The notes under the pieces: generated by a model
What the model was told of the DNA's origin: nothing
Database searches by the model: none
What the model saw: only the letters and a program-made list of their open reading frames with translations
Assembly: GCA_036273515.1 (NCBI GenBank)
Contig: DASUHM010000002.1
Span: forward strand, 748 to 64,747
Reading direction: 5' to 3'
Source of the DNA: Gaiellales bacterium
GTDB lineage: Bacteria; Actinomycetota; Thermoleophilia; Gaiellales; JAICJC01
DNA: 64,000 nucleotides
Shown: one piece after another, positions 8,485 through 37,894 of the stretch
Layout of the letters: the number at the start of each line of letters is the position of its first letter
Numbering within the stretch: the stretch's first letter is position 1
Made by a program: the position numbers and the translations under genes

Positions 8485-8544
8485 AACCGGCCGACTCCGG
8501 CACGCGTAGCCGGATGAACCGAACCCAGGAGGTCGACCCCGTCC

Positions 8545-22934: not shown

Positions 22935-22944
22935 CGTCGAGCTC

Positions 22945-23142
22945 CTATCGCTTTCCCAGGAGGCGCAGCGCCTCGGTTCGATCCGCCGGGGCCATCTCCT
23001 TGGCCTGGCGCTTCACCCGCCGCCGCTTCGCGCTCTTGTGCTCGAGCAGGTGCGTGCGGAACGCGCGCCGGCGCAGCACCTTGCCCGCGGCGGTCAGCCG
23101 GAACCGCTTCTTCGCGGCGGAAGAGGTCTTCATCTTTGGCAT
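22945..23142 (-). CDS. rpmI: 50S ribosomal protein L35
   Basis: The product starts [37 protein letters not shown]. Confidence 0.97.
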
Positions 23143-23155
23143 GCTCGGATCTCCT

Positions 23156-23770
23156 TCAGGCGCCGGCGGCGGCCTCGTCGGCGGCCTCGGCAGGCGCGTC
23201 GTCCGCCTTCGCGGCGGGTGCTACCACCGCCTTGTGCGGGGCCAGCATCATCACCATGTTCCGTCCGTCCTGCAGCGGCTGGGATTCGATCGAGCCGAGA
23301 TCCTTCACGTCCTCGGCGAGTCGGAGCAGGAGGTCCCGCCCACGCTCCGGGTGCGTCATCTCGCGCCCGCGGAACATGATCGTGACCTTCACCTTCGCCC
23401 GGCCCTTCAGGAATCGGACGACGTGACCCTTCTTGGTCTCGTAGTCGCCGACGCCGATCTTCGGCCGCAGCTTGATCTCCTTGATCGTGATCGTCGACTG
23501 GTGCTTGCGCGCGAGCTTTGCCTTCTGCTCTTGCTCGTACCGGTACTTGGAGTAGTCCATCACCCGGCACACGGGTGGGCGGGCGTCAGGCGCCACCTCG
23601 ACGAGGTCGAGGTTCTTGTCCCACGCCCACTTCTGCGCCTCGTCTGTGTTCTTGATACCGATCTGCGTGCCGTCGGCGTCGATCAGACGCACCTGGGGGA
23701 CGCGGATCGCCTCGTTGATCCGGGTGGTCGGCTCTTGCGGCCGTTGGTCGAGCTGCCTGCGGGGCCTCAA
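23156..23770 (-). CDS. infC: Translation initiation factor IF-3 (TTG start)
   Basis: The product contains [33 protein letters not shown] and [18 protein letters not shown]. An in-frame TAG lies 9 nt upstream of TTG 23770. There is no in-frame ATG before the conserved domain. Confidence 0.93.
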
Positions 23771-23821
23771 GACCTTTGCCTACTCACGATCATCCTCAAC
23801 CCTTGGAGCTCCTCTCCTAGA

Positions 23822-23848
23822 CAAAAAAACGGGTGCCGAAAGCACCCG
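23822..23848 (-). terminator. Intrinsic terminator inside the infC leader
   Basis: The minus strand reads CGGGTGC-TTTCG-GCACCCG followed by TTTTTTT. It ends 52 nt upstream of the infC start, and no gene lies upstream on this strand. Confidence 0.7.
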
Positions 23849-23953
23849 ATTGACGCCTCCACGACGGAAGCGGTAGCCGAACGATTCGGTTGAACCTCCC
23901 GGTACAGAGCCGGAGAGGTGAGGGGCGTGATGCCTCTGCTTAGCCAGGCGGGC

Positions 23954-23981
23954 AGTATAGCAACGCACTCGTAGCGGCCAA
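23954..23981 (-). promoter_or_regulatory. Sigma-70-type promoter TTGGCC-N16-TATACT for the infC-rpmI-rplT leader
   Basis: Read on the minus strand. It predicts a ~175-nt leader that contains the terminator. Confidence 0.45.
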
Positions 23982-24033
23982 ATCTCCGTTTGGAAACCTT
24001 GACCGGCGCGCCCGCCTTGGGCATTATCGCGGG

Positions 24034-24678
24034 GTGTTCCACGACCGCACCCAGGCAGGAGCGGCGCTCGCAGCGGCGATGCCGGAGCTGCGCAAGAAGG
24101 CGAACGTGACCGTCGTCGGGCTGGCGCGCGGCGGAGTCGAGGTGGCGGCGGAGACCGCCCGGCTGCTCGATCTGCCGCTCGACGTGCTGTGCGTCCGCAA
24201 GGTGGCGACGCCGGGCCATCCCGAGCTGGCGATGGGCGCCGTCGCCCCCCAGGGCGAGCGCTACACGAACCGGCGCGTCGCCGGCCGGCTCACGCCGATC
24301 CAGGTCGATGCGGCGTACGACACCGCGACCGCCCAGGCGCGGGAGATGGACGAGCGACTGCGCGGCGGCACGCCGATGATGCTCGTCGGGCGCACCGCGA
24401 TGATCATCGACGACGGCGCCGCGACCGGCGCCTCGATCCGGGCGGCCCTGGCGGCGGTGCGAAACGCCGGCGCCCGCCAGACCGTTATCGCGCTGCCCGT
24501 CCTGCCGCGGCTCGCCGTCGAGCGGCTCGAACGCGAGTGCGACCGGCTGGTCACGCTGCGAGCGCCCCAGCGCTTCCACGCTGTCAGCCAGTTCTACGAG
24601 CACTTCGACGAGGTCACCGAGTCACGCGTGATGGCGCTGCTCGCAACCGCGAAGCCCGCGGTCGAGCTCACCGTCTGA
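24034..24678 (+). CDS. Phosphoribosyltransferase-family protein
   Basis: 214-aa ORF with a GTG start. The PRPP-binding loop is AMIIDDGAATGAS, and the N-terminus reads FHDRTQAGAALA...VVGLARGGVEVA. CATTAT lies 6 nt upstream of the start. Confidence 0.75.
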   Translation: MFHDRTQAGAALAAAMPELRKKANVTVVGLARGGVEVAAETARLLDLPLDVLCVRKVATPGHPELAMGAVAPQGERYTNRRVAGRLTPIQVDAAYDTATAQAREMDERLRGGTPMMLVGRTAMIIDDGAATGASIRAALAAVRNAGARQTVIALPVLPRLAVERLERECDRLVTLRAPQRFHAVSQFYEHFDEVTESRVMALLATAKPAVELTV

Positions 24679-24689
24679 CACGGGGGGCC

Positions 24690-25020
24690 GTGGCGCCCAC
24701 CGCGATCGTCGTGGCGTTTCCCGACGTCCCGGCGCATGTGACGCTCATCTACCCGTTCGTCGACGACGCCGACCTGGCGGACGACGAAGTCCCTCGCCTG
24801 CGCGGCCCGCTCGCCGCTTTTCGCGCCATTCGACGTGCTCTACCTGGAGCCGGAGCCCGCCGGGCCCTTCCTCGGGATGATCGCGGCGTTGGCACTCTTT
24901 CCGCCGTCGAGGCCGAGGTCGACCGCCACCTGCCCTTCAATGCTCGGGTCGCCGAGGTCGCCGCGCTCGACAGGGAGACTCGGCTCGACCGCCTCTACGG
25001 CGCCCCCAACGAACGCGCTC
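24690..25020 (+). pseudogene. Degraded 2H-phosphoesterase (LigT / 2'-5' RNA ligase-like) gene
   Basis: Frame 0 reads (V)APTAIVVAFPDVPAHVTLIYPFVDDADL...PLAAF. The family-typical block FDVLYLEPEPAGPFLGMIAALALFPP is in frame +1. The frame then returns to frame 0. No second HxT/S motif is present, and no frame has a stop near the expected end. Confidence 0.45.
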
Positions 25021-25024
25021 AGAC

Positions 25025-25055
25025 GCACCAAAAGGGGTCTGACCCCGTTTGGTGC
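25025..25055. repeat. Extended REP-like hairpin GCACCAAAAGGGGTC-T-GACCCCGTTTGGTGC
   Basis: 15-bp arms with one mismatch. It lies directly after the stop of the hotdog gene (25057). Confidence 0.8.
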
Positions 25056-25056
25056 G

Positions 25057-25476
25057 TCAGTGGCCGGCGACGATGCCCGCGCCGCCCGGGCCGCGCTGGT
25101 GCTCGCGGCGGACGACGTAGGTGCCGCGGGCACGGGTGGCGAGGATCGGGTCGGGGAGCAGGTCGGCGGCGGAGTCGCTCACATCCGGGCGGGCCGAGAT
25201 CTCCTTCCAGATCTCGAGATCCACCGTCCGGCTGGTGGTGCCCATGCGCACGATCGTGCCGGTCGCGCGGACGAAGTCGCCGCCGTAGAGCGGCGCCAGG
25301 AACTCGACCTTCTCGTAGCCGGCGAAGAGGCCCTCGTCGCCGTCCGTGCGGATGGCGAGCTCGGTGACGATGTCGCCGAACAGCTCCAGGCCGTGCGCGC
25401 CGTCGACCAGGTTGCCGCCGTAGTGGACGTCGGCCGCCGACAGGCGCACCCGAAGCTCGACGCTCATGCCCTCCAT
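25057..25476 (-). CDS. Hotdog-fold protein resembling 3-aminobutyryl-CoA ammonia-lyase (Kal)
   Basis: 139-aa ORF with the motif block SAADVHYGGNLVDGAHGLELFGDIVTELAIRTDGDEGLFAGYEKVEFLAPLYGGDF. This matches my recollection of the Kal/hotdog family. It is the last gene of the peptide operon. Confidence 0.55.
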   Translation of the reverse strand: MEGMSVELRVRLSAADVHYGGNLVDGAHGLELFGDIVTELAIRTDGDEGLFAGYEKVEFLAPLYGGDFVRATGTIVRMGTTSRTVDLEIWKEISARPDVSDSAADLLPDPILATRARGTYVVRREHQRGPGGAGIVAGH

Positions 25477-25485
25477 GCGGCCATC

Positions 25486-26421
25486 CTACGCCCCACGCCG
25501 GATCAGGTGGACCGGGAACTGGTCCTGCATCTTGCCGTTCCGGCGCCGGGCCGGCTTCGCGGCGACGAGGCAGTTGTAGACCGCCTCCTCCGCCGCCTCG
25601 TAGGCGGCGGCGAAGAGCGGCGAGAGCCGCTCGAGCGGGAAGCCCTCCTCCTCGGCGACGGTGAAGGCGACCGCGATCTCGCCCGAGCCGTTCGACGCGT
25701 ACGACCCGGCCCGGGCCAGTCCCAGCAGCGGCCGCAGGGCCAGCCGCCGCAGCTGCTGGGCCTCGAGCGGCGCGTCCGTGGCGCAGACCGCGATGCAGGA
25801 GCCCTCGGGCGGCTCGGGCGGCTCGGCGGGGTCGAAGCGCAGCCCGCCTGAGGTGAGCCGCTCACGGTCGCCGAAGTTGCACATGAGCAGCACGCCGATC
25901 GTGTGCCCGTCGACGACCCGCGAGGCCGTGCCGATGCCGCCCGGGAAGTCGAAGCACGTCATTCCGGTGCCGCCGCCCACCGTCCCCTCGACGACGTCCT
26001 CGCCCGCGTTCGCGAGCGCCGCGTTCACGTCGTCGACGGTCACGGTGCGTGAGTCGCCCATGTCCGAGTCGTCGCACTCGCCGACGACCGGGATGACCGT
26101 GTTGTCGGGATCGCCGCCCGCGGCCAGCACGGCGCCGTGGTAGACCGTCCCGACGGCATGCGTCCCGCACAGCCACACCGGCGACTGGATGATCCCCCAC
26201 TCGTCGATCTCGAGCTTCTTCGTCAGCTCGCCGACGCCGTTAACCGTGTTCACGCCCGCCCGCGCCGGCAGCCGCGGCGGCACGATCACGGAGACGCCGG
26301 TGGCCTCGCCGCTGCCCGCCTGGGCGTGGCCGACGCGCACGCCGGGCACGTCCGTGACGGCGTTTCGCGCCCCCGTCGGGAAGAGGCCCACCGGGCCGGC
26401 CAGGTCGCGCCAGCGGGTCAT
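25486..26421 (-). CDS. P1/S58-family aminopeptidase (DmpA/BapA-like)
   Basis: ATG at 26421 overlaps the upstream stop (ATGA). The product contains NAVTDVPGVRVGH, TGVSVIV, GGTGMTCFDFPGGIGTAS and SGEIAVAF. Confidence 0.8.
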   Translation of the reverse strand: MTRWRDLAGPVGLFPTGARNAVTDVPGVRVGHAQAGSGEATGVSVIVPPRLPARAGVNTVNGVGELTKKLEIDEWGIIQSPVWLCGTHAVGTVYHGAVLAAGGDPDNTVIPVVGECDDSDMGDSRTVTVDDVNAALANAGEDVVEGTVGGGTGMTCFDFPGGIGTASRVVDGHTIGVLLMCNFGDRERLTSGGLRFDPAEPPEPPEGSCIAVCATDAPLEAQQLRRLALRPLLGLARAGSYASNGSGEIAVAFTVAEEEGFPLERLSPLFAAAYEAAEEAVYNCLVAAKPARRRNGKMQDQFPVHLIRRGA

Positions 26422-27446
26422 ACGAGGATGCACGCCGCCCGGTGCTGCGGCGACGTCGCCGCGTCGGGCCTGCGCAGCTCGGGATCGATCGACTTGCAGC
26501 GCTCCTCCGCGATCGGGCAGCGGGGATGGAAGCGGCAGCCGGACGGGATGTGGACGGGGTTCGGGGTCTCGCCGCTCAGGATCTGCGGCACCGTCGCGTC
26601 GCGCGGGTCGCGCTTCGGCACGACCGAGATGAGCGCCTTCGTGTACGGGTGTAGCGGTGTGCGTACGACGTCCTTCGCCGGCCCCTCCTCCACGATCCGG
26701 CCCAGGTACATGACCGCGATCCGGTCGGCGAAATGGGCCGCCGTCGAGAGGTCGTGCGTGATCATCACGATGGCGAGGCCCTCGCGGCGCAGGTCGTCCA
26801 GCAGGCGCAGGATGCCGGCCCGCACCGAGACGTCGAGCATCGACACCGGCTCGTCGGCCAGGAGCAGCTTCGGCTTCAGCACCATGGCCGCGGCGATCGC
26901 CACGCGCTGGCGTTGGCCGCCGGAGAGCTCGTGCGGGAAGCGGTCGAGGTAGAGCTCCGGCGGCTGCAGCCCCGCCTGGACGAGGGCCTGGACGACCAGC
27001 GCGTCGCGCGCGGCCGCGCTCCCGCCGATGCCGTGGATCAGCAACGGCTCGGCGACGGTGTCGCGCACCCGATAGCGCGGATCGAGCGACTCGTACGGGT
27101 CCTGGTAGATGATCTGCATCTCGCGCCGCAGCGGCCGCAGCTGCTTGTGGCTCAGCCGCGAGATGTCCTGGCCGCGGAAGCTGATCCGGCCCTCGTCGGC
27201 CTCGACCATCCGCATCACCGTCTGGGCGGTCGTCGTCTTGCCGCACCCGGACTCGCCGACGAGCGCGAGCATCTCGCCCGGGCCGACCGAGAAGTCGACG
27301 CCCTCGACGGCGTGCACGTGCAGCTGCTCCCGGCGCCGGATCGTGCCGAGGAGGCCGCGCGGCACCGGGTAGCGGGTGACGAGCCCCTCGACCTCGAGCA
27401 GCTGTGCATCGGCCTCGGCCGGGACGGCGGTCGCCTCGGCGCTCAC
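26418..27446 (-). CDS. Oligopeptide/dipeptide ABC transporter ATP-binding protein (OppF/DppF-type)
   Basis: GTG at 27446 overlaps the upstream stop (GTGA). It has Walker A GESGCGKTT, signature LSGGQRQRVAIA, and a C-terminal oligopeptide-type extension (HPYTKAL...CRFHPRCP). Confidence 0.9.
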   Translation of the reverse strand: MSAEATAVPAEADAQLLEVEGLVTRYPVPRGLLGTIRRREQLHVHAVEGVDFSVGPGEMLALVGESGCGKTTTAQTVMRMVEADEGRISFRGQDISRLSHKQLRPLRREMQIIYQDPYESLDPRYRVRDTVAEPLLIHGIGGSAAARDALVVQALVQAGLQPPELYLDRFPHELSGGQRQRVAIAAAMVLKPKLLLADEPVSMLDVSVRAGILRLLDDLRREGLAIVMITHDLSTAAHFADRIAVMYLGRIVEEGPAKDVVRTPLHPYTKALISVVPKRDPRDATVPQILSGETPNPVHIPSGCRFHPRCPIAEERCKSIDPELRRPDAATSPQHRAACILV

Positions 27447-28423
27447 CCGGCCACCTCCGCGGGGACGTCGTTCAGGTGGCAGGCGGCGGTGTGGTTGTCG
27501 CCCACCTCGCGCAGCCGTGGCTCCTCGTGCGGGCAGCGGGCGAAGGCGGAGTCGCAGCGGGGCTGGAACGGGCAGCCGACCACCTCGCGGTCGAGCCGGG
27601 GCGGCGCTCCGGGGATCGAGGTCACCTCGTCGTCGCCGCGCAGGTCGGGCGTCGCCTGGAAGAGCATCCGCGTGTACGGGTGGCGGGGATCGTGGAAGAG
27701 CGTCTCGATCGGCCCCGACTCCGCCACCTTGCCGGCGTACATGACGGCCGCCCGCCGGCACACCTGGGCGACGACCGGGAGGTCGTGGGTGACGAGGATC
27801 ATCGCCAGCCCGAGATCCTCCGTCAGGCGCACGAGCAGCTCGAGGATCTGGGCCTGCACCATCACGTCGAGCGCCGTCGTCGGCTCGTCGGCGAGCAGCA
27901 CCTTGGGGTTGCACGCGAGCGCCATCGCGATCGCGGCGCGCTGGCGCATTCCGCCGGAGAACTCGTGCGGGTAGCGGTCGGCCCGCGACCCCGAGATCCC
28001 GACCATCTCGAGCAGCTCGGCGGCCTGGTTGCGGGCGGCCCGGCCCGACGCGACATCGTGCAGCTCCATCGGCTCGACGATCTGCGATCCGACGGTCTTC
28101 ACGGGGTTGAACGCGTTCATCGCCCCCTGGAACACCATCGCGACGTCGCGCCAGCGGTGCGGCGCCATCGACTCCTCGCCCTTCGCGAGCGCATCCAGGC
28201 CCTCGAGCAGCACGCGGCCCGCCACGCTCGCGTTCGGCGGCAACAACCCCATGAGCGCGAGGATGGTGGTCGTCTTGCCGCAGCCCGACTCGCCCACGAG
28301 GCCCATCCGCTCGCCCGGGTAGAGATCGAAGTCGACCCCCTGCACGGCATGGAGCTCGCCGCCGGGGATGTCGAACCACACCTCGAGGCCCTCGACGCTC
28401 AGCACCGGAGTCCGCGCGCTCAC
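27443..28423 (-). CDS. Oligopeptide/dipeptide ABC transporter ATP-binding protein (OppD/DppD-type)
   Basis: GTG at 28423 overlaps the upstream stop (GTGA). It has Walker A GESGCGKTT, signature FSGGMRQRAAIA, and HPYTRML...CPFQPRC. Confidence 0.9.
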   Translation of the reverse strand: MSARTPVLSVEGLEVWFDIPGGELHAVQGVDFDLYPGERMGLVGESGCGKTTTILALMGLLPPNASVAGRVLLEGLDALAKGEESMAPHRWRDVAMVFQGAMNAFNPVKTVGSQIVEPMELHDVASGRAARNQAAELLEMVGISGSRADRYPHEFSGGMRQRAAIAMALACNPKVLLADEPTTALDVMVQAQILELLVRLTEDLGLAMILVTHDLPVVAQVCRRAAVMYAGKVAESGPIETLFHDPRHPYTRMLFQATPDLRGDDEVTSIPGAPPRLDREVVGCPFQPRCDSAFARCPHEEPRLREVGDNHTAACHLNDVPAEVAG

Positions 28424-29370
28424 TCGGACTCGAGCCTCCCCCGCAGCGGCCGCAGCCGGAACCGCCGCACCGACAGGTGGCCGACGCGCAGCCGCGGGTT
28501 GAGCGCGTCCTCCATCGCCTGGCCCATCATCGTCGCGGCCAGGATGACGATCGTGACGCACAGGCCCGGCGGGATGATCGCCCACCACGCCTTGTGGAAG
28601 ATCGCCCCGCCGGAGAGCGAATTCTGGATCAGCTTGCCCCACGAGATCGTGGACGGATCCTCGAGGCCGAGGAACGCGATGTAGGTCTCGGCGAAGACGG
28701 CGATCGCGATCGTGAGCACCGTGTTCGCCACGAGCAGCGGCGCCACCTGGGGCGTGATGTGCTTCCACACCAGCCGCCCGTGCCCGCCGCCGAGCGCCCG
28801 GGCGCGCTTCACGTAGACGCGCTCACGCACCGATTTCACCTGTGCCCTGATCAGCCGCGCGGTGCTCGTCCAGTAGATGATCCCGATGATGAGGACGACG
28901 TTCAGGGTGCTGCGGCCGAACACCGCCGCGGCCACGATCATGAGCGGCACGTCCGGGATCACCAGGAAGTAGTCCGTGATCCGCATGAGGAAGATGTCGG
29001 TCTTGTTGCCGAAGTAGCCGGACAGGAGACCGACGCCGCCGCCGATGATCATCGCCACGGCCGCGCCGGCGAACCCGACGATCATCGAGACCCGCGCGCC
29101 CGCGATCACCTCGGAGAGCATGTCGATGCCGCCGTCGTCCAGCCCGAGCCAGTGCTGGCTGCTCGGCGGGGCGTAGACCGGGCCGACCTGCGTCGTCGTC
29201 GAGTACGGCTCGATCCACGGCCCGATGATCGCGATCACGATGAAGAACAGCAGCACCAGCAGGCCGACGACCGCCGCCCGCTGGCCGAAGAGCACCTCGC
29301 GGATGAATCCGCGCCGCGGCGTCGATTCCTGCGCGACCGGGGCCTCGACGAGCCCGATTGCCTCGCTCAT
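28420..29370 (-). CDS. Peptide ABC transporter permease (OppC/DppC-type)
   Basis: 316-aa ORF with 6 TM segments and an EAA-like loop (ARALGGGHGRLVWKHITPQV). Its ATG overlaps the oppB stop (ATGA). Confidence 0.9.
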   Translation of the reverse strand: MSEAIGLVEAPVAQESTPRRGFIREVLFGQRAAVVGLLVLLFFIVIAIIGPWIEPYSTTTQVGPVYAPPSSQHWLGLDDGGIDMLSEVIAGARVSMIVGFAGAAVAMIIGGGVGLLSGYFGNKTDIFLMRITDYFLVIPDVPLMIVAAAVFGRSTLNVVLIIGIIYWTSTARLIRAQVKSVRERVYVKRARALGGGHGRLVWKHITPQVAPLLVANTVLTIAIAVFAETYIAFLGLEDPSTISWGKLIQNSLSGGAIFHKAWWAIIPPGLCVTIVILAATMMGQAMEDALNPRLRVGHLSVRRFRLRPLRGRLESE

Positions 29371-30341
29371 TCGGTCACCCTCGGATCGAGCTTGAAGTAG
29401 ACGAGGTCGGCGATGAAGTTGGCGATGATCACCGACAGGGTCAGGATCAGGAAGATCCCCTGGAGCACCGGGTAGTCACGCCGGTTGAGGGCGTCGATCG
29501 TGGCCAGACCGATGCCGGGGTAGGAGAACACGTCCTCGACGACGATCGCCCCGGCGACGATCGACCCGAGCGACAGGGCGATCAGCGTCACCAGCGGGAG
29601 CATCGCGTTGCGCAGGGCGTGCTTCCACACGATCGACCAGTTGCGGATGCCCTTGGCGCGGGCGGTCAGGATGTAGTCCTCGCCGAGCGTCTCGAGCATC
29701 GAGGAGCGCACGATCAGCGCGTACTCGCCGTAGAGGCCGATCCCGAGCACCAGGGCCGGCAGGAAGAGGTGCGAGACGCGGTCGCTGAACACGTCCCACG
29801 TCGACGGCGTCGACAGGATGCCGAGGGTGTTCGACTCGATCCCGCTCGCCGGCAGGCCGAGCGGGATCGCGATGTAGAAGATCACGAGGATCCCGATCCA
29901 CTGCGTCGGCATCGCGTAGAAGGCGAGCGCGCTCCACGTGTTGCTCGTATCCGCGAGGGTGCCCCGCCGCCAGGCGGCGACCACCCCCGTGATGACCCCG
30001 AGAATGATCGAGATCACCGTCCCGGCCACGATCATCGGCAGGGTGTTCACGAGCGGCCCTTTGATGTCGTCCCACACCGGGCGGTTGTCGGCGATCGACG
30101 TGCCCAGATCGCCGTGGGCGAGCCGCTCGATGTAGATGAAGTACTGCTGCAGCTTGGGCTTGTCGAGGCCGTACTGCTTGACGATCGACTCGCGGAACTG
30201 CTTCGTGCAGTGCTGGCAGCGAAGCCCGGAAACCGCGTTGCCGGGCAAGGCCCGGAACAGCACGAAGTTGAGCGTGATGGCGACGAACACCGTCACGATC
30301 GCGAACACCGTCCGCTTGATGATGTAGTCGGCCCCGCTCAC
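29367..30341 (-). CDS. Peptide ABC transporter permease (OppB/DppB-type)
   Basis: 324-aa ORF. The N-terminus reads YIIKRTVFAIVTVFVAITLNFVLFRALPG, and the EAA loop reads TARAKGIRNWSIVWKHALRNAM. Confidence 0.9.
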   Translation of the reverse strand: MSGADYIIKRTVFAIVTVFVAITLNFVLFRALPGNAVSGLRCQHCTKQFRESIVKQYGLDKPKLQQYFIYIERLAHGDLGTSIADNRPVWDDIKGPLVNTLPMIVAGTVISIILGVITGVVAAWRRGTLADTSNTWSALAFYAMPTQWIGILVIFYIAIPLGLPASGIESNTLGILSTPSTWDVFSDRVSHLFLPALVLGIGLYGEYALIVRSSMLETLGEDYILTARAKGIRNWSIVWKHALRNAMLPLVTLIALSLGSIVAGAIVVEDVFSYPGIGLATIDALNRRDYPVLQGIFLILTLSVIIANFIADLVYFKLDPRVTE

Positions 30342-30377
30342 GTCGTCCTCTGCTCCAGCTTGACGCGGTTCAGCGAC

Positions 30378-32072
30378 TCATCCGGTCTTGTGCGGCGCCG
30401 TGTAGTAGCACTTGCAGTAGGCGTTCAGGTCGGGATAGAAGCCCGTCCAGCCCTTGTCGTTGGCCGTGACCAGATCCTCGTTCACGAGCTGGATGTACGG
30501 CCGGTCGTGCGCGACTCTGGCCTCCATCTTCCACACGAGCGCCTGCCGCTGCTTCGCGTCGAGCAGCGTCGCCTGCTTCAGGTACGCGTTGTTGAACCAG
30601 GGGACGTTGTAGCCGGTGTCGTTCCAGCTGTACCACTGGGCCCGGGTCATGTACGAGAGCTGGGCGTCCGGATCGATGTACTCGGCCCAGTCCCAGGTGG
30701 CGAAGTCGAACTTCGTGTACTTGCCGGCGGTCTCGAGGCCGTAGGCCTGACCGCTGTCGCCGCCCGCGACCTCGTGCAGCTTGACCCCGACCTTGGCCCA
30801 GTCGTCCGCGATGATCTGGAACTGGCGGTCGCCGTTGAAGTCGAGGCTGTCCGGCACGATGACGTTGTAGTCCATCGGGTGCGCCGGCTGCGCGTACTTC
30901 CCGGTCGTCGCGGGCACCTCGCGGATCCCGTTCGAGCCCTTCTTGTAGCCGAGCGAGTCGAGGATCTGGTTCGCCTTGTCCGGGTCGAACGGCAGCGGCT
31001 TGATCGCCGGGTTCAGCCAGAACGGGCCGGACTGGACCGAGAGCATGTTCGCCCAGGGCTTGGCGTAGCCCGCGAAGATCACCTTCACGATGGCGGCCCG
31101 GTCGGTGGCGTACTCGAGCGCCTCCCGCACCTTCGGGTCGAGCAGCTCGCGGTTCTTGGGCTTCAGCGGGTTCGAGTTGATGGTGATGTTGGTGACCTCG
31201 GAGGTCGGCACCGACTGCACGGCGAAGCGGGAGTCGGTCTTCAGCGAGCTGATCGCGTTGAACGGCACCTGGTCGGCGAAGTCGATGTTGCCCTGGTCGA
31301 GGTCGGCGATCATCGAGGTCGAGTTCGTGTAGTAGGTCATCGCCACGGCCTCGGCGTTGGACTTCGGGCCGTAGAAGTACGGGTTGGGCTTGAAGACCGT
31401 CGTGCCCTTCTCCTGGTACTTCGAGATCGAGTACGGGCCGCCGGCGACAGTGGGCAGGTGCTGCTCGGGGCGATACGACTTGAGGCCCTTGCCGTCGGAT
31501 CCCACGAGGGGGCCCCAGACGTGCTGGGGCAGGACCCAGAACTGCTCGAGCTGCGGCAGCACGTTGGCGATCGGCTTGTCGTAGTGGACGATCAGCGTCG
31601 TCGCGTTGGGCGCATCCATGTGCGTCACATGGGTCAGCGCAGCCGCCAGGTACGCGGCCGGCCCGGCGCCGAACTTCACGATGGTGTTTCCCGTCCAGGC
31701 GGCGTCTGCGGCCGTCAGGGGCTTCCCATCCGACCACTTGCCGCCGCCCTTCAGGTGGAAGGTCCAGGTGCGGCCGTCGGACGACTTCGTCCAGCTGGTC
31801 GCCCAGTCGCCCTCGAGCTTCTCGCCCGGGCCGTACTGGACGAGCTGCGGGTACTCCATGACGAAGGCGTTGTAGGACTGGCTCTCGATGGCCACGAACG
31901 GATTGAGGGAGTCGATGTAGTTCGTCGTGCCGACGCGCAGGATGCCGCCCTTGACGACGTTTCCGCTCCCGCCGCCGCCACCTCCGGGCGATGCCCCGCC
32001 TCCGCCGCAGCCGGCGGCGATCGCCACAACGGCCGCGAGCATCGTCGTTGCCATCAACCTGCGCGCTCTCAT
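30378..32072 (-). CDS. ABC transporter substrate-binding lipoprotein, family 5 (peptide/nickel)
   Basis: I chose the ATG at 32072 because SD GGGAGGGA lies upstream. The product starts MRARRLMATTMLAAVVAIAAGC (lipobox). The ATG overlaps the creatininase stop (ATGA). Confidence 0.85.
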   Translation of the reverse strand: MRARRLMATTMLAAVVAIAAGCGGGGASPGGGGGGSGNVVKGGILRVGTTNYIDSLNPFVAIESQSYNAFVMEYPQLVQYGPGEKLEGDWATSWTKSSDGRTWTFHLKGGGKWSDGKPLTAADAAWTGNTIVKFGAGPAAYLAAALTHVTHMDAPNATTLIVHYDKPIANVLPQLEQFWVLPQHVWGPLVGSDGKGLKSYRPEQHLPTVAGGPYSISKYQEKGTTVFKPNPYFYGPKSNAEAVAMTYYTNSTSMIADLDQGNIDFADQVPFNAISSLKTDSRFAVQSVPTSEVTNITINSNPLKPKNRELLDPKVREALEYATDRAAIVKVIFAGYAKPWANMLSVQSGPFWLNPAIKPLPFDPDKANQILDSLGYKKGSNGIREVPATTGKYAQPAHPMDYNVIVPDSLDFNGDRQFQIIADDWAKVGVKLHEVAGGDSGQAYGLETAGKYTKFDFATWDWAEYIDPDAQLSYMTRAQWYSWNDTGYNVPWFNNAYLKQATLLDAKQRQALVWKMEARVAHDRPYIQLVNEDLVTANDKGWTGFYPDLNAYCKCYYTAPHKTG

Positions 32073-32896
32073 CTGGATCCCTCCCACGGTGGTTCATGAT
32101 GATCCCTGCCCGGGCGCGGTTCGCGCACGGCCAGCTCCTCGATATATCCCGCGATCTCCGCGACCGCACGGTCGAGCCAGAGCCTGCCCTTCTCGACCGT
32201 CGCCACGGTCGCGTCGCCCATGACGCCCGACTCCGTCCACCCGCTCCACGCGCCCTTGACCGAGAGCGGCCCGTCGTTCCAGTCCATCCACACGTTCTCC
32301 GAGCCCCAGTCGGGGATCTCGCGCACCGCCTTGCCCATCTGCACGAGCTCGGGCTTGATCGCCAGGTAGAGCGACGTCTCGAGCTCGCAGGCATGGGCCA
32401 TCCCGCCCGGCGCCTCGGAGTCGCGCGTCTCCCGCAGGAGCTCGGCCGACTCGGCGCTCGAGAGGTACCAGAACGAGGCCGCCGTTGCCTCGGGCCGCTC
32501 GACCATGAGCAGGCGTGCCGCCATCTCGACGAGGGGGACGTTCGAGCCGTGGCCGTTCACGAAGAGGATGCGCGAGAAGCCGTGTCGGAAGAGGCTGCGG
32601 CCGATGTCGAGCAGGCCGTCGACGAACGTCTTCCAGTCGATCGTGATCGGCCCGGGGAAGTCCATGTGGTGCGGCGTATAGCCGTGCGTCACGGTCGGCA
32701 GCAGGAGCGCCTGGGCCGGGCAGCGCCGCACCGCCAGGTCGGCGAGCGTCTCGGCGATGACGACGTCCGTGTCGATGGGCAGGTGGTAGCCGTGGTCCTC
32801 GAGCGTGGCGACCGGGATCACGCACACCGGATCGCGCTGCGACCACTCGGCCACCTCCGGCCAGGTCAGCTGCGCGTAGCGGTGCGTCGGGGTCTC
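32069..32896 (-). CDS. Creatininase-family amidohydrolase (start codon uncertain)
   Basis: Conserved residues are LTWPEV, VIPVATLEDHGYHLPIDTD, FVNGHGSN and AHACELETS. Only CTG (32869) or ACG (32887) is available between the upstream stop (32895-32897) and the conserved N-terminus. Confidence 0.75.
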   Translation of the reverse strand, partial: ETPTHRYAQLTWPEVAEWSQRDPVCVIPVATLEDHGYHLPIDTDVVIAETLADLAVRRCPAQALLLPTVTHGYTPHHMDFPGPITIDWKTFVDGLLDIGRSLFRHGFSRILFVNGHGSNVPLVEMAARLLMVERPEATAASFWYLSSAESAELLRETRDSEAPGGMAHACELETSLYLAIKPELVQMGKAVREIPDWGSENVWMDWNDGPLSVKGAWSGWTESGVMGDATVATVEKGRLWLDRAVAEIAGYIEELAVREPRPGRDHHEPPWEGSR

Positions 32897-33914
32897 AGTT
32901 GAAGGCGTAGCGCTGCTCCTGGGAATCGCACGGGTTTCCGCGACCGTACCGGATCGTCCCTTCTGTGACGTCGGCAAGGCACCAAAAGACAGTTTTGGAT
33001 TGCGCGCCGTGCTCGATGTGGCGGCAGAGCGAGTCCGGCGCGCCGGTGTGGTCGGAGAGCGCCTCGCGCAGGCGCTCGGGCGTCGCCGGGCCGCTGTCGA
33101 GCCAGTTACGGGCGGCGCGCTGGCGGGCACACGAGCCCTCGATGTCGCCCGGATCGCGCTCGTAGGCGGCCATCCGCGCGCTCGTGTAGTGGTTCGTGTG
33201 GGCCAGGGTGCCGCGCGCGTCCGGCCGCAGCAGCTCGGCGTCGGTGGCGGAGCCCTCGACGCTGACGACGCCGCCGTCGCGGTGGCTCAGGAGGTTGTTG
33301 TACGACGACGCGCGGCGGGGATGCAGCGCCGCCTCGGTGGCCTCGGCGAGCGTGCACCGGCGCAGGATGTCGCGCACGAGCAGGAGCCGGGGGATGCCGA
33401 CGCGGTCGTCGTTCGGCGAGAGCTCGTTGCCGGTCAGCGCGAGGCCGGCCGAGTTGAAGCCGACGCTGATCCACGGCCCGATCCCGATGGTGAACGACAC
33501 CGGGTCGCCGGGCACCGACCACTCGATGGCGACGAGCTCCTCCTCGGACTCGGGCCCGAGGTCGTTGTTGTGGGCGGCCCAGACGTGGCCGTCCGGCGTG
33601 GCGGGGGCGGTGGCGACGAGGTCGGAGCAGCGCGATGCCGGGGCCGGCTCCTCGACGGCGATCTCCTCGATCCCGGCGGCGAACACGGCCAGCGGATCGG
33701 CGCCGGCGCCCGCGGCGACGCCGTCGAGCTCCTCGATCAGCCAGGGCAGCTCGGCCGCCGTCACCTCGCGGTAGGCGGCCGCCTCGGCCAGCCGGCGGCC
33801 GTCGATCGCCGCCGCACGCCGACGCACGACCTCGGCGGTCGCGGCGCCGATCTGATTCCCGACCTCGCGGTGCGTCCCTGCCACACGCACGAGCTCGATC
33901 CTACGGGGCGGCAT
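32895..33914 (-). CDS. C45-family peptidase / acyl-CoA:6-APA acyltransferase-like Ntn hydrolase
   Basis: 339-aa ORF with THREVGNQIG, a candidate nucleophile Cys in SRCSDLV, and NNDL and HTNHY blocks. It is the first gene of the operon. TAGCGT lies 6 nt upstream of the ATG. Confidence 0.65.
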   Translation of the reverse strand: MPPRRIELVRVAGTHREVGNQIGAATAEVVRRRAAAIDGRRLAEAAAYREVTAAELPWLIEELDGVAAGAGADPLAVFAAGIEEIAVEEPAPASRCSDLVATAPATPDGHVWAAHNNDLGPESEEELVAIEWSVPGDPVSFTIGIGPWISVGFNSAGLALTGNELSPNDDRVGIPRLLLVRDILRRCTLAEATEAALHPRRASSYNNLLSHRDGGVVSVEGSATDAELLRPDARGTLAHTNHYTSARMAAYERDPGDIEGSCARQRAARNWLDSGPATPERLREALSDHTGAPDSLCRHIEHGAQSKTVFWCLADVTEGTIRYGRGNPCDSQEQRYAFN

Positions 33915-33920
33915 TCCGGA

Positions 33921-33926
33921 ACGCTA
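33921..33926 (-). promoter_or_regulatory. -10 box TAGCGT, 6 nt upstream of ATG 33914 (leaderless operon start)
   Basis: The minus strand reads TAGCGT tccgga ATG. Confidence 0.45.
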
Positions 33927-33983
33927 CCGGTCGAAGGGCCGCCTGTATAGGGCGAACCGTCCCCAATCCCGGTGCGCTGGGTG

Positions 33984-33989
33984 TAGGTT
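33984..33989 (+). promoter_or_regulatory. -10 box TAGGTT, 6 nt upstream of ATG 33996
   Basis: Sequence is TAGGTT gaacgg ATG. Confidence 0.45.
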
Positions 33990-33995
33990 GAACGG

Positions 33996-34718
33996 ATGGC
34001 AAGCGCTGGGGCCCCGCGCTACCGGGAGGTCGCGGACGCGCTCCAGCGGCGGATCCTGGCAGGTGACCTGACTTCCCACGACCGGCTGGCGTCGGAGCGG
34101 GAGATCGCCGAGAGCTTCGGGCTCTCCCGCATGACTGCCCGGCAGGCGGTCGAGCTGCTCGTCCGCCGCGGCGTCGTCTACCGCCGGCCGGGCTCCGGCA
34201 CCTACGTGTCGCCGCCGCGGGTCGTGCATTCGCTCGAGCGGCTGGCCGGCTTCTCCGAACAGATGCGCCGGCAGGGCGTCCATCCCGGCGGCCGCGTGCT
34301 CGAGATGCGCTGCACCGAGACCCCCGACGACGACGCCCGGCAGGCGCTCGGCCTCGGCGACCGCGAGGCCGCCTGGATGGTGCGGCGCATGCGCTACGGC
34401 GACGGCGAGCCGCTGCTGCTCGAGACGTTCTGGGTGCCGCGGGCCGTCTGCCCGGAGCTCCAGCCGGACGAGCTCACCGAGCAGTCGCTCTACGCCGTCA
34501 TGCGCAGCCGCTATGGCATCGACCCGGTCAGCGCGGAGACGTCCCTCGAGCCGGCGGCCCTGGACGCCGACGACGCCCGCCACCTGCGCGCCCGCCCCGG
34601 CGCCCCGGCCATCCTGGTCGTGCGCACCACGCGCGCAGCGGACGGCCGGGCGGTCGAGTTCGCCCGCGACCTCTACCGGGGCGACCGGGCGCGGTTCGAC
34701 CTGACGCTGCGGACGTAG
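33996..34718 (+). CDS. GntR/HutC-family transcriptional regulator (wHTH + UTRA)
   Basis: 240-aa ORF. The wHTH reads LASEREIAESFGLSRMTARQAVELLVRRGVVYRRPGSGTYV, followed by a UTRA-like C-terminal domain. It is divergent from the peptide operon. Confidence 0.85.
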   Translation: MASAGAPRYREVADALQRRILAGDLTSHDRLASEREIAESFGLSRMTARQAVELLVRRGVVYRRPGSGTYVSPPRVVHSLERLAGFSEQMRRQGVHPGGRVLEMRCTETPDDDARQALGLGDREAAWMVRRMRYGDGEPLLLETFWVPRAVCPELQPDELTEQSLYAVMRSRYGIDPVSAETSLEPAALDADDARHLRARPGAPAILVVRTTRAADGRAVEFARDLYRGDRARFDLTLRT

Positions 34719-34735
34719 CGGCGCGGCCCGCCGCC

Positions 34736-34766
34736 GCACCGTGCGGGGTCAGACCCCATTTGGTGC
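34736..34766. repeat. REP-like copy GCACCgtgcGGGGTCAGACCCCatttGGTGC, plus a half copy at 34788-34797
   Basis: Lies between the convergent HutC and thrS genes. The half copy supplies the thrS terminal codons GGG GTC TGA. Confidence 0.8.
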
Positions 34767-34788
34767 GTCTGCGCCGCACCACCTGGCG

Positions 34789-36708
34789 TCAGACCCCTGT
34801 CGCGGCAGATCGCCTGGTTGCGGCTTCGGCGACGAGCTCGTCGCGCAGCTCGGCCAGCGGGCGGGCGCCCAGGTTGCCCTCGTCGCGGCGGCGCAGCGAG
34901 ACGGCGCCCGCCTCGACCTCCTTGTCGCCGACCACGAGGATGCAGGGGATGCGCTGGTGCTCGGCCTCGGCGATCTTCTTGCCGACCGACTCGGTGCGCA
35001 GGTCGGGCTCGGCCCGCAGGCCGGCAGCGACCAGGTCGGCGGCGACCTGGGTCGCATAGTCGTCGTGACGGTCGGCGACCGGCAGCACGATCGCCTGGAG
35101 CGGCGCCAGCCACAGCGGGAACGCGCCCGCGTAGTGCTCGATCAGGATGCCGATGAAGCGCTCGAATGCGCCGAACAGCGCCCGGTGCACCATCGCCGGC
35201 CGGTGCTCGGCGTTGTCGTCGCCGGTGTAGACCATGTCGAACCGCTCGGGCATCTGGTAGTCGAGCTGGATCGTGCCCATCTGCCACGACCGGCCCACCG
35301 AGTCGGTCATGTGCAGGTCGATCTTGGGGCCGTAGAAGGCGCCGTCGCCCTCGTTCAGGTCGTACTCCTCGCCGGCGCGCGCCAGCGCGTTCGCGAGCGC
35401 CCCCTCCGCCCGGTCCCAGAGGGCGTCGTCGCCGATCCGGTTCTCGGGCCGGGTCGAGAGCTCGAGCCGCACCGGCAGGTCGAAGATGCCGTAGATGTGG
35501 CGGGCCAGCTCGAGGCAGCCGATCACCTCGTCCTCGACCTGATCGTCGGTGCAGAAGATGTGGGCGTCGTCCTGGGTGATGTGGATGACGCGGAGCAGGC
35601 CGTGGAGCGCGCCGGACGGCTCGTCGCGGTGCACCAGCCCCTGCTCGGCGAGCCGCATCGGCAGGTCGCGGTAGCTGCGCCGGGCCGCCTGGTAGATCTC
35701 GACGTGGCCGGGGCAGTTCATCGGCTTCACGCCCAGCGGGCGCTCGTCCTTCTCGGTGAAGAACATGTTCTCGCGGTACTTGTCCCAGTGCCCGGAGCGG
35801 CGCCAGATGTCGACCGAGTAGATGATCGGCGTGCGCACCTCGCGGTAGCCCCAATCCCGGTTCAGCTCGCGCCAGAGCCGGGTCAGCTCGTTCCAGATGA
35901 CCATGCCGCGGGGGTGCCAGAACGGCGCCCCCGGCGCCACGTCGGAGGTGTGGAAGAGGTCGAGCTCGCGGCCGATCCGGCGATGGTCGCGGCGGCGCGC
36001 CTCCTCCAGCAGCCGCAGATGCTCGTCGAGGTCGGCCTGCTTGAAGAAGGCGGTGCCGTAGATGCGGGTGAGCATCGTATTGGCCGAGTCGCCGCGCCAG
36101 TACGCGCCGGCCTGCGAGAGCAGCTTGAACGCCTTGATCGGCGCGGTCGTCTGCAGGTGCGGCCCGCGGCAGAGGTCCTCGAAGTCGTCGTTTCGGTACA
36201 GGCTGATGTCGCCGTCCGGAAGGCCCTCGGCCAGCTCGAGCTTGTACGGCTGGTGCTCCGCCTCGAACCGCGCCAGCAGCCCGGGCTTCTCGACCCCGTC
36301 CTCGCGGACGAAGTCCGCCGGGGTCTTCAGGATGCGGCGCATCTCGGCCTCGATCTTCTCGAGATCCTCGGGCCCGATCGGCTCGGCGAACTCGAAGTCG
36401 TAGTAGAAGCCGTCGGCGATGGCGGGGCCGATCGCGATCTTCGTGTCCGGCCACAGGTGCAGCACGGCCTGCGCCATGACGTGGGCAGTCGAGTGGCGCA
36501 GCACCGCGAGCGCCTCCGGGTCGCGGTCGGTGAGGATGCGCAGGCTCTCCCCCTCGTGTACGGGCAGGCGCAGGTCGCGCACCTCGCCGTCGACCTGGAG
36601 GGCGACTGCGGCCTTGGCCAGGCGGGGGCCGACGGCCGCGGCGGCGTCGAGGCCGCTGGCACCGTCGGGAAGGTCGAGCCCGCTGCCGTCGGGGAGGGTC
36701 ACTTTCAT
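34789..36708 (-). CDS. thrS: Threonine--tRNA ligase
   Basis: The product has a TGS domain (MKVTLPDGSGLDLPDG), class II motifs (FHTSDVAPGAPFWHPRG, RVIHITQDDAHIF) and an anticodon-binding domain. I prefer ATG 36708 because TATGCT lies 7 nt upstream. The track start at 36720 is the alternative. Confidence 0.93.
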   Translation of the reverse strand: MKVTLPDGSGLDLPDGASGLDAAAAVGPRLAKAAVALQVDGEVRDLRLPVHEGESLRILTDRDPEALAVLRHSTAHVMAQAVLHLWPDTKIAIGPAIADGFYYDFEFAEPIGPEDLEKIEAEMRRILKTPADFVREDGVEKPGLLARFEAEHQPYKLELAEGLPDGDISLYRNDDFEDLCRGPHLQTTAPIKAFKLLSQAGAYWRGDSANTMLTRIYGTAFFKQADLDEHLRLLEEARRRDHRRIGRELDLFHTSDVAPGAPFWHPRGMVIWNELTRLWRELNRDWGYREVRTPIIYSVDIWRRSGHWDKYRENMFFTEKDERPLGVKPMNCPGHVEIYQAARRSYRDLPMRLAEQGLVHRDEPSGALHGLLRVIHITQDDAHIFCTDDQVEDEVIGCLELARHIYGIFDLPVRLELSTRPENRIGDDALWDRAEGALANALARAGEEYDLNEGDGAFYGPKIDLHMTDSVGRSWQMGTIQLDYQMPERFDMVYTGDDNAEHRPAMVHRALFGAFERFIGILIEHYAGAFPLWLAPLQAIVLPVADRHDDYATQVAADLVAAGLRAEPDLRTESVGKKIAEAEHQRIPCILVVGDKEVEAGAVSLRRRDEGNLGARPLAELRDELVAEAATRRSAATGV

Positions 36709-36715
36709 GCTCGGC

Positions 36716-36721
36716 AGCATA
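36716..36721 (-). promoter_or_regulatory. -10 box TATGCT, 7 nt upstream of thrS ATG 36708
   Basis: The minus strand reads TATGCT gccgagc ATG. Confidence 0.45.
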
Positions 36722-36735
36722 CAAACGCGCGCTGG

Positions 36736-36741
36736 TACGCT
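36736..36741 (+). promoter_or_regulatory. -10 box TACGCT, 7 nt upstream of kinase ATG 36749
   Basis: Sequence is TACGCT cgccccg ATG. Confidence 0.45.
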
Positions 36742-36748
36742 CGCCCCG

Positions 36749-37894
36749 ATGACAGCGGCGATTGCGGCCTTGGCGGTGGCCCTCGGGATCGCCGTCGTCT
36801 TGCTCGTCCGGACGCGGCGCGATCACGCCGAGGGGGAGGCCGCCCTGGCGCGCGAGCTGCGCGACCGCGTCCCCCGCTCCGAGCTCTCCGAGGCGCGGGC
36901 CGGCCGCGACGCGTTGATGGCGGCCGTCCCCAGCCCGGTGCTCGTGTTCGACGCCGACGGCCGGCTGGTGCGCGCGAACGCGCTCGCCCGGGAGGAGGCA
37001 AGCGCCCTGCTCGACCTCGGCGCGCAGCCCGACCTGGCCGCAGCCGTCGAGTCGGCGCTCACCGGCGGCACCCCGGCCGGCGAGATCGGCCTGACGGTCT
37101 ACGAGCCCGACCGGCGCCGCTACCGCGCCCATCTCCAGGCGTTCCGGGGCGAGGGCGGCGCGCGCTGCGTCGTCGTCCTGACCGACGAGAGCGCCGAGGC
37201 CGACTACCGCGACGCCCGGCGGCTGTTCTCGGCCGGCGTGTCGCACGAGCTGCGCACGCCGCTCCAGCGCATCCTCGGCCTCGTCGAGACGCTCGGGCTC
37301 GACCTGCCCGACGAGGGCCGGGCCGAGATCATCGCCCAGGCCCGGCTGGAGGTCGACGGCATGCGCCGCCTGATCGAGGACATGATCATGCTCGTCCAGC
37401 TCGAGGGCCACCGCGTCGACGGAGCCGGCGAACCGACGGACATGGCCGAGGCGGTCTCGGCATGCCTGCGCCGCCACGCCGACGCCGCCGCCGAGGCGTC
37501 GATGCCGCTCAGCGCGCAGGCCAACCGCGGCCTCGTGGTGGCGGTGCCGCCGCGGCTGGTCGAGGCGGTGCTCGACAACCTGGTCGAGAACGCCATCCGC
37601 CACGCCGGCGAGGGCGAGAGCATCGAGGTGCGCGTCCGCGGCCTCTCGGGCGCCGTCGAGCTCGTCGTCCACGACACCGGCGGCCGCATCCCGCCCGACC
37701 ACCTCGGCCGGGTGTTCGAGCGCTTCCACCGGGTCGAGGACGCGCGGTCCGGCCCGGGGACGGGACTCGGCCTTGCCATCGTGAAGCACATCGCCGAGGA
37801 GTCCGGCGGCCGCGCGACGGCGGAGTCGAGCCCGACGGCGGGCACCACGATGCGGGTCGTGCTGCCCGCGCCTGCTGCTGTCCGAACCGGCTAG
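36749..37894 (+). CDS. Sensor histidine kinase (1 TM, PAS-like, HisKA, HATPase_c)
   Basis: ATG at 36749 in ORF 36419..37894. It has a TM segment (MTAAIAALAVALGIAVVLLV), H-box FSAGVSHELRTPLQ, N-box LDNLVENAIRHA and G-boxes HDTGGRIP and GTGLGLAIV. Confidence 0.85.
   Translation: MTAAIAALAVALGIAVVLLVRTRRDHAEGEAALARELRDRVPRSELSEARAGRDALMAAVPSPVLVFDADGRLVRANALAREEASALLDLGAQPDLAAAVESALTGGTPAGEIGLTVYEPDRRRYRAHLQAFRGEGGARCVVVLTDESAEADYRDARRLFSAGVSHELRTPLQRILGLVETLGLDLPDEGRAEIIAQARLEVDGMRRLIEDMIMLVQLEGHRVDGAGEPTDMAEAVSACLRRHADAAAEASMPLSAQANRGLVVAVPPRLVEAVLDNLVENAIRHAGEGESIEVRVRGLSGAVELVVHDTGGRIPPDHLGRVFERFHRVEDARSGPGTGLGLAIVKHIAEESGGRATAESSPTAGTTMRVVLPAPAAVRTG

Follow-up and report, generated by a model that had tools for sequence, protein, structure and literature searches.

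A Gaiellales operon joining a peptide-type importer, three amide hydrolases and a Kal-family lyase: a probable reduced form of a beta-lysine salvage locus

Introduction

The S58 beta-aminopeptidases BapA and DmpA are well-studied biocatalysts, DmpA being an L-aminopeptidase and D-Ala esterase/amidase, and to our knowledge neither has an established physiological substrate or pathway context. The iaaA-gsiABCD locus of Escherichia coli is a peptide-type ATP-binding cassette (ABC) importer with a linked N-terminal nucleophile (Ntn) hydrolase. The genes of lysine fermentation were reportedly identified by Kreimeyer and colleagues in 2007, and among their products Kce draws on acetyl-coenzyme A (acetyl-CoA) to form 3-aminobutyryl-CoA. 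In the classical pathway, KamDE, Kdd and Kce turn beta-lysine into 3-aminobutyryl-CoA, which is deaminated by Kal (PMC3149608). The locus considered here brings components of all these systems together. It is a nine-gene operon (positions 25057-33914, minus strand) within a 64,000-nucleotide stretch of contig DASUHM010000002.1 of a Gaiellales bacterium (assembly GCA_036273515.1), hereafter the window, to which all positions refer; the G+C content of the window is ~72%, and its closest database relatives carry Gaiellales or Thermoleophilia labels as metagenome-assembled genomes. We propose, with a probability of roughly 60%, that the operon serves the uptake and hydrolysis of a beta-aminoacyl-containing amide and that it is the reduced descendant of a beta-lysine salvage locus in which kal has been retained. 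An earlier reading of the window from its letters alone (the sequence-only reading) had suggested the uptake of unusual peptides and the funnelling of a beta-amino acid. This suggestion gains strong indirect support from the synteny of sister loci, but the route is incomplete in the window, where kdd, kamBDE and kce are absent.

Results

The last gene of the operon and its neighbours

The last gene of the operon encodes a hotdog protein whose translation contains the block HYGGNLVDG...DGDEGLF...VEFLAPLYGGD, by which a resemblance to Kal had first been recognised. The protein scores 160.2 bits against the equivalog model NF052388 (Lys_ferment_KAL), a borderline pass of the cut-off of 160, and an in-pathway ortholog at locus L087 scores 164 bits. 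Its best PDB match is the beta-alanyl-CoA:ammonia lyase 4mtu (E 4e-25 over 130 residues), and the next matches are ordinary thioesterases at E 5e-05 or worse; by both NF052388 and 4mtu the protein groups with the Kal/Acl lyases, and not with the thioesterases among which it might have fallen. It is predicted to be a Kal-family beta-aminoacyl-CoA ammonia-lyase, and it is 84-88% identical to the product of the kal gene that lies between kamE and kce in sister loci. The pathway context of kal, with kce and kamDE, is not found in the window or its genome, but it is found in these orthologous sister loci. Searches with Pfam and NCBIfam profiles recovered all nine genes in the families to which they had been assigned, and all in the same orientation. 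The operon and its flanking elements are, in the direction of its transcription:

33996..34718, plus strand: GntR-family, HutC-subfamily (UTRA) regulator, divergent to the operon (PF00392 + PF07702)
33915..33995, between the divergent genes: control region of 81 bp (alignment of 16 relatives)
32895..33914, minus strand: C45-family autoproteolytic Ntn cysteine acyltransferase/hydrolase, 339 aa, first gene of the operon (NF040521 172.7 bits, cut-off 85; PF03417 AAT)
32069..32977, minus strand: creatininase-family metallo-amidohydrolase, 5' end uncertain, TTG 32977 or a non-canonical start near 32890 (PF02633 220.9 bits)
30378..32072, minus strand: family-5 (Opp/Dpp/Nik/Gsi-type) substrate-binding lipoprotein, SBP_bac_5 (PF00496 209.9 bits; signal peptide with terminal lipobox IAAG/C)
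29367..30341, minus strand: ABC permease, DppB/OppB type (PF00528 + PF19300)
28420..29370, minus strand: ABC permease, DppC/OppC type (PF00528 + PF12911)
27443..28423, minus strand: ABC ATPase, OppD/DppD type (PF00005 + PF08352)
26418..27446, minus strand: ABC ATPase, OppF/DppF type (PF00005 + PF08352)
25486..26421, minus strand: S58/P1 (DmpA/BapA family) self-processing Ntn serine hydrolase, short 311-aa form (PF03576 272.5 bits)
25057..25476, minus strand: predicted Kal-family beta-aminoacyl-CoA ammonia-lyase, hotdog fold, 139 aa, last gene of the operon (NF052388 160.2 bits, cut-off 160)
25018..25059, minus strand: hairpin over the kal stop codon, REP-like, probable operon end (RNA fold)

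Short and long forms in relatives

Relatives were gathered as eighty genome loci fetched through Kal, together with loci from exact protein look-ups. The nine-gene order of the window recurs at 55-99% identity in ~23 Gaiellales loci, so that the gene set is conserved as a unit (the short form). About a dozen sister loci carry a long form, in which the same importer and hydrolases are accompanied by kdd, kamB/D/E and kce in the order PucR< Kdd-C45-Creat-SBP-perm-perm-ATP-ATP-S58-KamB-KamD-KamE-Kal-Kce; that is, Kdd stands upstream of C45, KamB-KamD-KamE are found between S58 and Kal, and Kce follows Kal. Both forms occupy the same chromosomal site, with thrS/GntR on one side and a Pribosyltran gene, followed by infC-rpmI-rplT, on the other. 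The Kdd, KamD, KamE and Kal proteins of the long form pass their NCBIfam equivalog cut-offs, KamB (188 vs 210) and Kce (356 vs 382) lying slightly under theirs, and the long form is predicted to encode the full route from beta-lysine to crotonyl-CoA. A search of 11 genomes of both forms for lysine 2,3-aminomutase (KamA; PF12544, TIGR00238) found none, while its positive controls matched, and the long form would therefore degrade a beta-lysine that the cell cannot make. This beta-lysine is most plausibly released from an imported compound. Where a short and a long locus are closely related, the substrate-binding protein (SBP) is 91% identical, the C45 protein 98% and the S58 protein 93%, so both forms probably import the same compound. 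One locus (L031/L095) carries S58-Kal-Kce without Kam or Kdd.

In several long-form loci (L091-L095), further amide hydrolase genes are inserted at constant positions, with an amidase-signature amidase separating the ATPase gene from S58 and a second one separating kal from kce. An M19 dipeptidase is present in L092, a flavin amine oxidase and a putative TetR-like regulator stand between kamE and kal in L093, and L095 has a truncated amidase and a GFA-family gene. At a further locus (L021/L102, 9335-11914), kamD and kamB are split over several frames with in-frame stops, kamE, kal and kce being intact; this may be decay in progress, or may reflect errors of an apparently long-read assembly.

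Retention of kal

The distribution of kal, counted at an identity of at least 73%, was surveyed in 201 genomes of the order, 65 of them from the window's family. The gene is present in 60 of these 65 and in no other family of the sample; only 17 of the 60 also carry kamD, which never occurs without kal. Within a monophyletic, well-supported short-form clade that includes the window, the ratio of nonsynonymous to synonymous substitution rates (dN/dS) of kal is 0.115 at dS ~0.46, the lowest of ten genes compared, and kal is thus under strong purifying selection in the window's lineage. No residue separates short-form from long-form Kal. The two forms are interleaved in a tree of the ATPase, S58 and Kal proteins; a monophyletic short form is rejected (p-AU 7e-15), and well-supported branches force at least three switches of form. 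Parsimony on the operon tree gives ~7 switches either way, and loss and gain are not polarised by the tree alone; we favour loss because the kamD-kamE-kal(-kce) adjacency exists in other phyla. The window's operon would then be a reduced form of a longer beta-lysine locus, from which all genes of the route but kal have gone. Taken together, the low dN/dS, the lack of form-specific residues, the interleaving of the forms and the near-identity of their importers and hydrolases suggest that selection maintains Kal for a role that is coupled to the importer and hydrolase genes and does not depend on KamDE, Kdd or Kce.

The same data bear on a rival explanation, according to which the operon scavenges ordinary oligo- or dipeptides, including D-amino-acid peptides, and Kal is a passenger that survived the deletion of the beta-lysine module and now serves unrelated housekeeping, for example another acyl-CoA reaction. 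Opp/Dpp-type importers and aminopeptidase-type hydrolases are generic, the established activities of DmpA itself would suit such a diet, 72% of the kal-bearing genomes are without kamD, and no feeder for Kal is found in the window's genome. A passenger would, however, hardly be expected to be the most constrained gene of the operon, and in ~40 loci kal never stands apart from the S58 gene. Three unusual amidases in the place of standard peptidases also speak against plain alpha-peptides, as does the long form, where amidase-signature amidases and an M19 dipeptidase are added in the same positions. We consider simple scavenging unlikely, although it deserves to be kept in mind, and return to the proposal of a beta-aminoacyl-containing amide.

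Source of the CoA thioester

The window's genome, with a completeness of 96.6%, contains no KamB/D/E, Kdd or Kce, and the pathway genes are likewise absent from three other short-form genomes. Its sole BKACE gene (the Pfam family of Kce; contig C60) was rejected as a Kce, since it adjoins a carnitine 3-dehydrogenase gene, which points to a dehydrocarnitine-type enzyme. The sequence-only reading had remarked that no CoA ligase or transferase accompanies the lyase. This is correct for the operon, and the puzzle has an answer in the long-form relatives, where no ligase is required because Kce uses acetyl-CoA; that answer does not extend to the window's genome, where the CoA-thioester substrate of Kal would be made by an unlinked activating enzyme. 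Three paralogs of nucleoside-diphosphate-forming (NDP-forming) acyl-CoA synthetase are encoded there, and they are uninformative as form-specific activators, such paralogs being present in all 11 genomes of both forms. In three Acidobacteriota loci (L057, L058 and L080, ~7914-10387), the gene for a Kal homolog (62% identity) is translationally coupled to one for an NDP-forming acyl-CoA synthetase, its first base being the last of the synthetase gene, and no lysine-pathway genes are nearby. This synthetase and Kal may constitute a two-gene module for a free beta-amino acid, and by analogy the pair would offer a precedent for a Kal that works with a free-standing ligase.

Three amide hydrolases

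Family S58 membership of the penultimate gene product is clear, PF03576 covering profile positions 1-305 of 307 at 272.5 bits. In alignment with DmpA (1b65), Gly249/Ser250 (EG/SCIAV), Asn218 and Ser288-Gly289 are conserved; the best PDB match is 2drh (E 9e-49), followed by DmpA (8e-35) and BapA (3n2w, 6e-32). No natural S58 substrate tied to beta-lysine was found in the literature. The first gene product belongs to the C45 subfamily defined by NF040521 (172.7 vs 85 bits), and its nucleophile Cys aligns to Cys103 of isopenicillin-N acyltransferase (IAT), the flanking residues differing (SR/CSD vs DG/CTT in 2x1d).

The latter enzyme suggests another explanation, in which C45 itself supplies the CoA step by running the isopenicillin-N acyltransferase reaction in reverse: the beta-aminoacyl group would pass from the amide through a Cys-thioester to CoA and then to Kal, and no ligase would be needed. 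In its favour are the nature of the C45 type member, an acyl-CoA-dependent transacylase, the conserved nucleophile Cys, the lack of a ligase or transferase gene in the operon, and the occurrence of C45 and kal together in both forms wherever the locus is fully covered. Going from an amide to a thioester is nevertheless thermodynamically uphill, and a literature search found no bacterial C45 protein with CoA-transacylase activity. Moreover, C45 is the fastest-evolving of the hydrolases (52% identity between the window and L087, against 76% for the creatininase-family protein and 77% for S58), and it is not a neighbour of kal in distant loci. This explanation is, in our view, quite improbable, and under the preferred reading C45 would act simply as one of the amidases.

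Because the second gene product falls below every equivalog cut-off (TIGR04448, 102 vs 235 bits; MftE, 118.8 vs 172; IolN also), it is classed as a member of the creatininase family only and is probably no bona fide creatininase. When it is aligned to creatininase 1q3k, the E-x-H...D and NGH metal-ligand positions coincide, and four of the five ligands Glu34, His36, Asp45, His120 and Glu122 appear to be kept, Glu122 aligning to Ser (NGHGSN vs NGHYEN). In four of six sampled contexts, homologs of ~60% identity are preceded immediately by a Kdd paralog (37% identical to Kdd) and followed by a PotD-type importer, a neighbourhood that appears to tie this subfamily to the chemistry of beta- or diamino acids; one possible reaction is the ring opening of a diamino-acid lactam. 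It could be supposed that the whole operon is devoted to such cyclic amides, whether creatinine-like compounds or diamino-acid lactams, with the peptide-type importer carrying a cyclic compound and the creatininase-family enzyme opening the ring. The strong family match would fit, as would the recurrent Kdd-paralog context, which evokes 3,5-diaminohexanoate-like chemistry, and a delta-lactam of that kind would form readily. Against this supposition stand the score of 102 vs 235 bits on the creatininase equivalog and the apparent replacement of the metal ligand Glu122, and it leaves S58, C45 and Kal unexplained; we hold it to be very improbable.

A recurrent cluster (L096, L097, L099 and L100) comprises, in order, genes for TetR, a Kdd paralog, a creatininase-family protein, a PotA/PotD-type ABC importer and a lipoprotein-like product of 180-200 aa. 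Divergent to it are genes for an NDP-forming acyl-CoA synthetase and two acyl-CoA dehydrogenases, joined in some loci by an enoyl-CoA hydratase gene. The whole looks like an undescribed catabolic locus for diamino or beta-amino acids. The window's own genome has, on contig C62 (~26.5-37.5 kb, L089), a paralogous set of an S58 protein (42% identical) and a creatininase-family protein (33% identical), with an Opp-type importer on the opposite strand and no kal.

Importer

The five importer genes encode an SBP_bac_5 receptor, two BPD_transp_1 permeases and two oligo_HPY ATPases, the composition of an Opp/Dpp-type (PepT family) system, and none of the components reaches an equivalog cut-off for a named substrate. 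The closest solved relatives of the SBP are YliB/GsiB, AapF and NikA, at only E ~1e-21, and these relatives are too distant to suggest a ligand. At locus L008, the hydrolases and kal are 86-98% identical to those of the window and the ABC-transporter genes only 39-51%; the transporter cassette appears to have been swapped there.

Junctions, control region and operon end

The genes had been described as linked by four-nucleotide overlaps. Five such start/stop overlaps are exact, at 32069-32072, 29367-29370, 28420-28423, 27443-27446 and 26418-26421 (ATGA, ATGA, GTGA, GTGA and ATGA, in operon order), and the first of them, the start of the SBP gene, has a GGGAGGG Shine-Dalgarno sequence; the description does not hold for the SBP/permease gap of 36 nt, the S58/Kal gap of 9 nt or the irregular C45/creatininase junction. 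At this last junction, no in-frame ATG, GTG or TTG is present between TTG 32977 and GTG 32854, the conserved N-terminal LTWPEV block of the creatininase-family protein begins at ~32870, and the C45 stop codon (TGA) is at 32895-32897. Many relatives have an ATG or TTG 10-17 codons ahead of the LTWPEV motif, and four (L015, L016, L020 and L023) have no in-frame ATG, GTG or TTG within 70-187 open codons ahead of it; the spacer that follows the C45 TGA has a length of 1 modulo 3 in the relatives inspected. The missing canonical start in the window and these four relatives, together with the spacer length, suggests non-canonical initiation, reinitiation or a -1 frameshift fusion with C45.

The GntR+UTRA regulator lies on the plus strand, 81 bp from the C45 ATG, as had been read. 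Its winged helix-turn-helix domain (PF00392, 66 bits) and UTRA domain (PF07702, 122.6 bits) place it in the HutC subfamily, under all NCBIfam equivalog cut-offs, including those of HutC, PhnF and PhnR, and it is found divergent beside C45 in 15 relatives. Between the divergent genes, the near-palindrome CCTGTATAGG is present at 33942-33951, where it had been put forward as a candidate operator. It is kept only in the nearest relatives and at the -35 spot: it stands 17 nt from the -10 box, in a -35/-10 pair TATACA-N17-TAGCGT, and CCCTATACAG is kept at the -35 position in the nearest relatives. Because the near-palindrome occupies the site of the -35 hexamer, it may be part of a promoter or of an operator. 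Neither the C45 nor the regulator start codon has a Shine-Dalgarno sequence in an alignment of 16 relatives, in which two -10-like boxes, TAGCGT 6 nt upstream of the C45 ATG and TAGGTT 5 nt upstream of the regulator ATG, are conserved as TANNNT. Leaderless transcripts of both genes are plausible because these boxes precede both starts by 5-6 nt.

A scan with the sigma-70 consensus found no promoter, and its single terminator-like match at the operon end coincides with the core of the hairpin over the kal stop codon (-37.5 kcal/mol over 66 nt, z = -4.4), which is not followed by a T-run. The core of this hairpin, CACCAAAAGGGGTCTGACCCC, resembles a repetitive extragenic palindrome (REP) and occurs beyond kal (25026-25054), beyond the regulator gene (34745-34765) and at 58355-58375, when no copy would be expected by chance. 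A search of 22000-37000 against Rfam returned no RNA family. A decayed 2H-phosphoesterase (LigT-like) pseudogene lies convergent with kal at 24690-24915 (plus strand); its counterpart in L005 is intact (172 aa), and the match to it is spread over two frames and shows internal deletions.

Discussion

The proposed function of the operon can be outlined as follows. The HutC-type regulator would control a catabolic operon whose transcript is probably leaderless, and the Opp/Dpp-type ABC importer with its lipoprotein receptor would bring in a small amide-bonded, peptide-like compound. Three intracellular amidases of different mechanism, the C45 Ntn-cysteine enzyme, the creatininase-family metallo-amidase and the S58/DmpA-type Ntn-serine aminopeptidase, would break this compound down. 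Kal would then strip ammonia from a beta-aminoacyl-CoA, most likely 3-aminobutyryl-CoA, to give the enoyl-CoA. In the long-form sisters, kdd, kamB, kamD, kamE and kce would take beta-lysine to 3-aminobutyryl-CoA, this beta-lysine coming from outside the cell and most plausibly being freed from the imported compound. Synteny supports the link of the operon to beta-amino acids, and we infer that the imported compound carries a beta-amino acyl unit.

Several observations weigh against this proposal. The score on the Kal model sits right on its cut-off (160.2 vs 160), and no enzyme linked to kal in the window's genome is able to make a beta-aminoacyl-CoA; the NDP-forming acyl-CoA synthetase paralogs are equally present in short- and long-form genomes. 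The nearest solved relative of the S58 protein is not BapA but 2drh, an uncharacterised archaeal 'D-aminopeptidase' of Pyrococcus, and the SBP is only distantly related to receptors of known ligand. The importer/hydrolase and beta-lysine modules could also be mere neighbours in a super-operon, with no common substrate. A more far-reaching version of the proposal is an undescribed aerobic salvage of natural beta-aminoacyl amides, in which S58 would be a beta-aminopeptidase at work on its true physiological substrate and the short-form C45 would pass the beta-aminoacyl group to CoA for Kal, independently of a ligase. Beta-lysyl compounds of the streptothricin or tuberactinomycin type are common in soil, and candidates for such a salvage include their beta-lysyl side chains and epsilon-linked beta-lysine oligomers; as a whole this version strikes us as improbable.

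The place of the S58 gene, with a peptide importer on one side and genes of beta-amino-acid catabolism on the other, is fixed throughout a family of abundant soil actinobacteria, and this context gives a testable physiological hypothesis for the 'beta-aminopeptidases'. The long form amounts to beta-lysine degradation without lysine 2,3-aminomutase in apparently non-fermentative organisms, which implies an environmental source of beta-lysine. Since kal is kept by selection without the rest of the pathway, its substrate would come from a source absent from current pathway maps, and kal is unsafe as a metagenome marker of lysine fermentation or butyrate synthesis. The component families are known; their combination as this operon variant is new, and our literature search found no description of it.

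Compared with iaaA-gsiABCD, the operon likewise has a family-5 SBP, two permeases, two oligo_HPY ATPases and an Ntn amidase, and GsiB/YliB is the nearest solved SBP to that of the window; it differs in having three amidases and a CoA-ester lyase, and its SBP scores 84 bits against a GsiB cut-off of 594. With DmpA of Ochrobactrum anthropi and BapA of Sphingosinicella (S58/P1), the S58 protein shares the fold family, the Gly/Ser self-processing site and the Asn and Ser-Gly oxyanion residues, whereas it is shorter (311 aa against ~375 aa) and adjoins beta-amino-acid catabolic genes. The C45 protein is of the same proenzyme family as acyl-CoA:6-aminopenicillanic acid acyltransferase of Penicillium chrysogenum (2x1d), with the nucleophile Cys conserved, but the relationship is distant (E 3e-11), and the bacterial protein has Arg before this Cys where IAT has Gly. 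Acl2 of Clostridium propionicum (4mtu) is the closest solved relative of the window's Kal, a member of the same small hotdog lyase family with the same reaction type; the window protein nevertheless scores as Kal (3-aminobutyryl-CoA) and not as Acl, and it is orthologous to the kal of beta-lysine clusters. Finally, the operon resembles the lysine fermentation cluster (kamA, kamDE, kdd, kce, kal) of Fusobacterium nucleatum and Clostridium sticklandii in that its last gene also encodes a predicted Kal-family lyase, and the sister loci have Kdd, KamB/D/E, Kal and Kce, their kamD-kamE-kal-kce order being the one seen in other phyla. It differs from that cluster in that kamA is found in none of the genomes tested and the window's genome holds kal alone, and in that these genes are set in a peptide-importer and amidase operon of soil actinobacteria instead of the cluster of an anaerobic fermenter.

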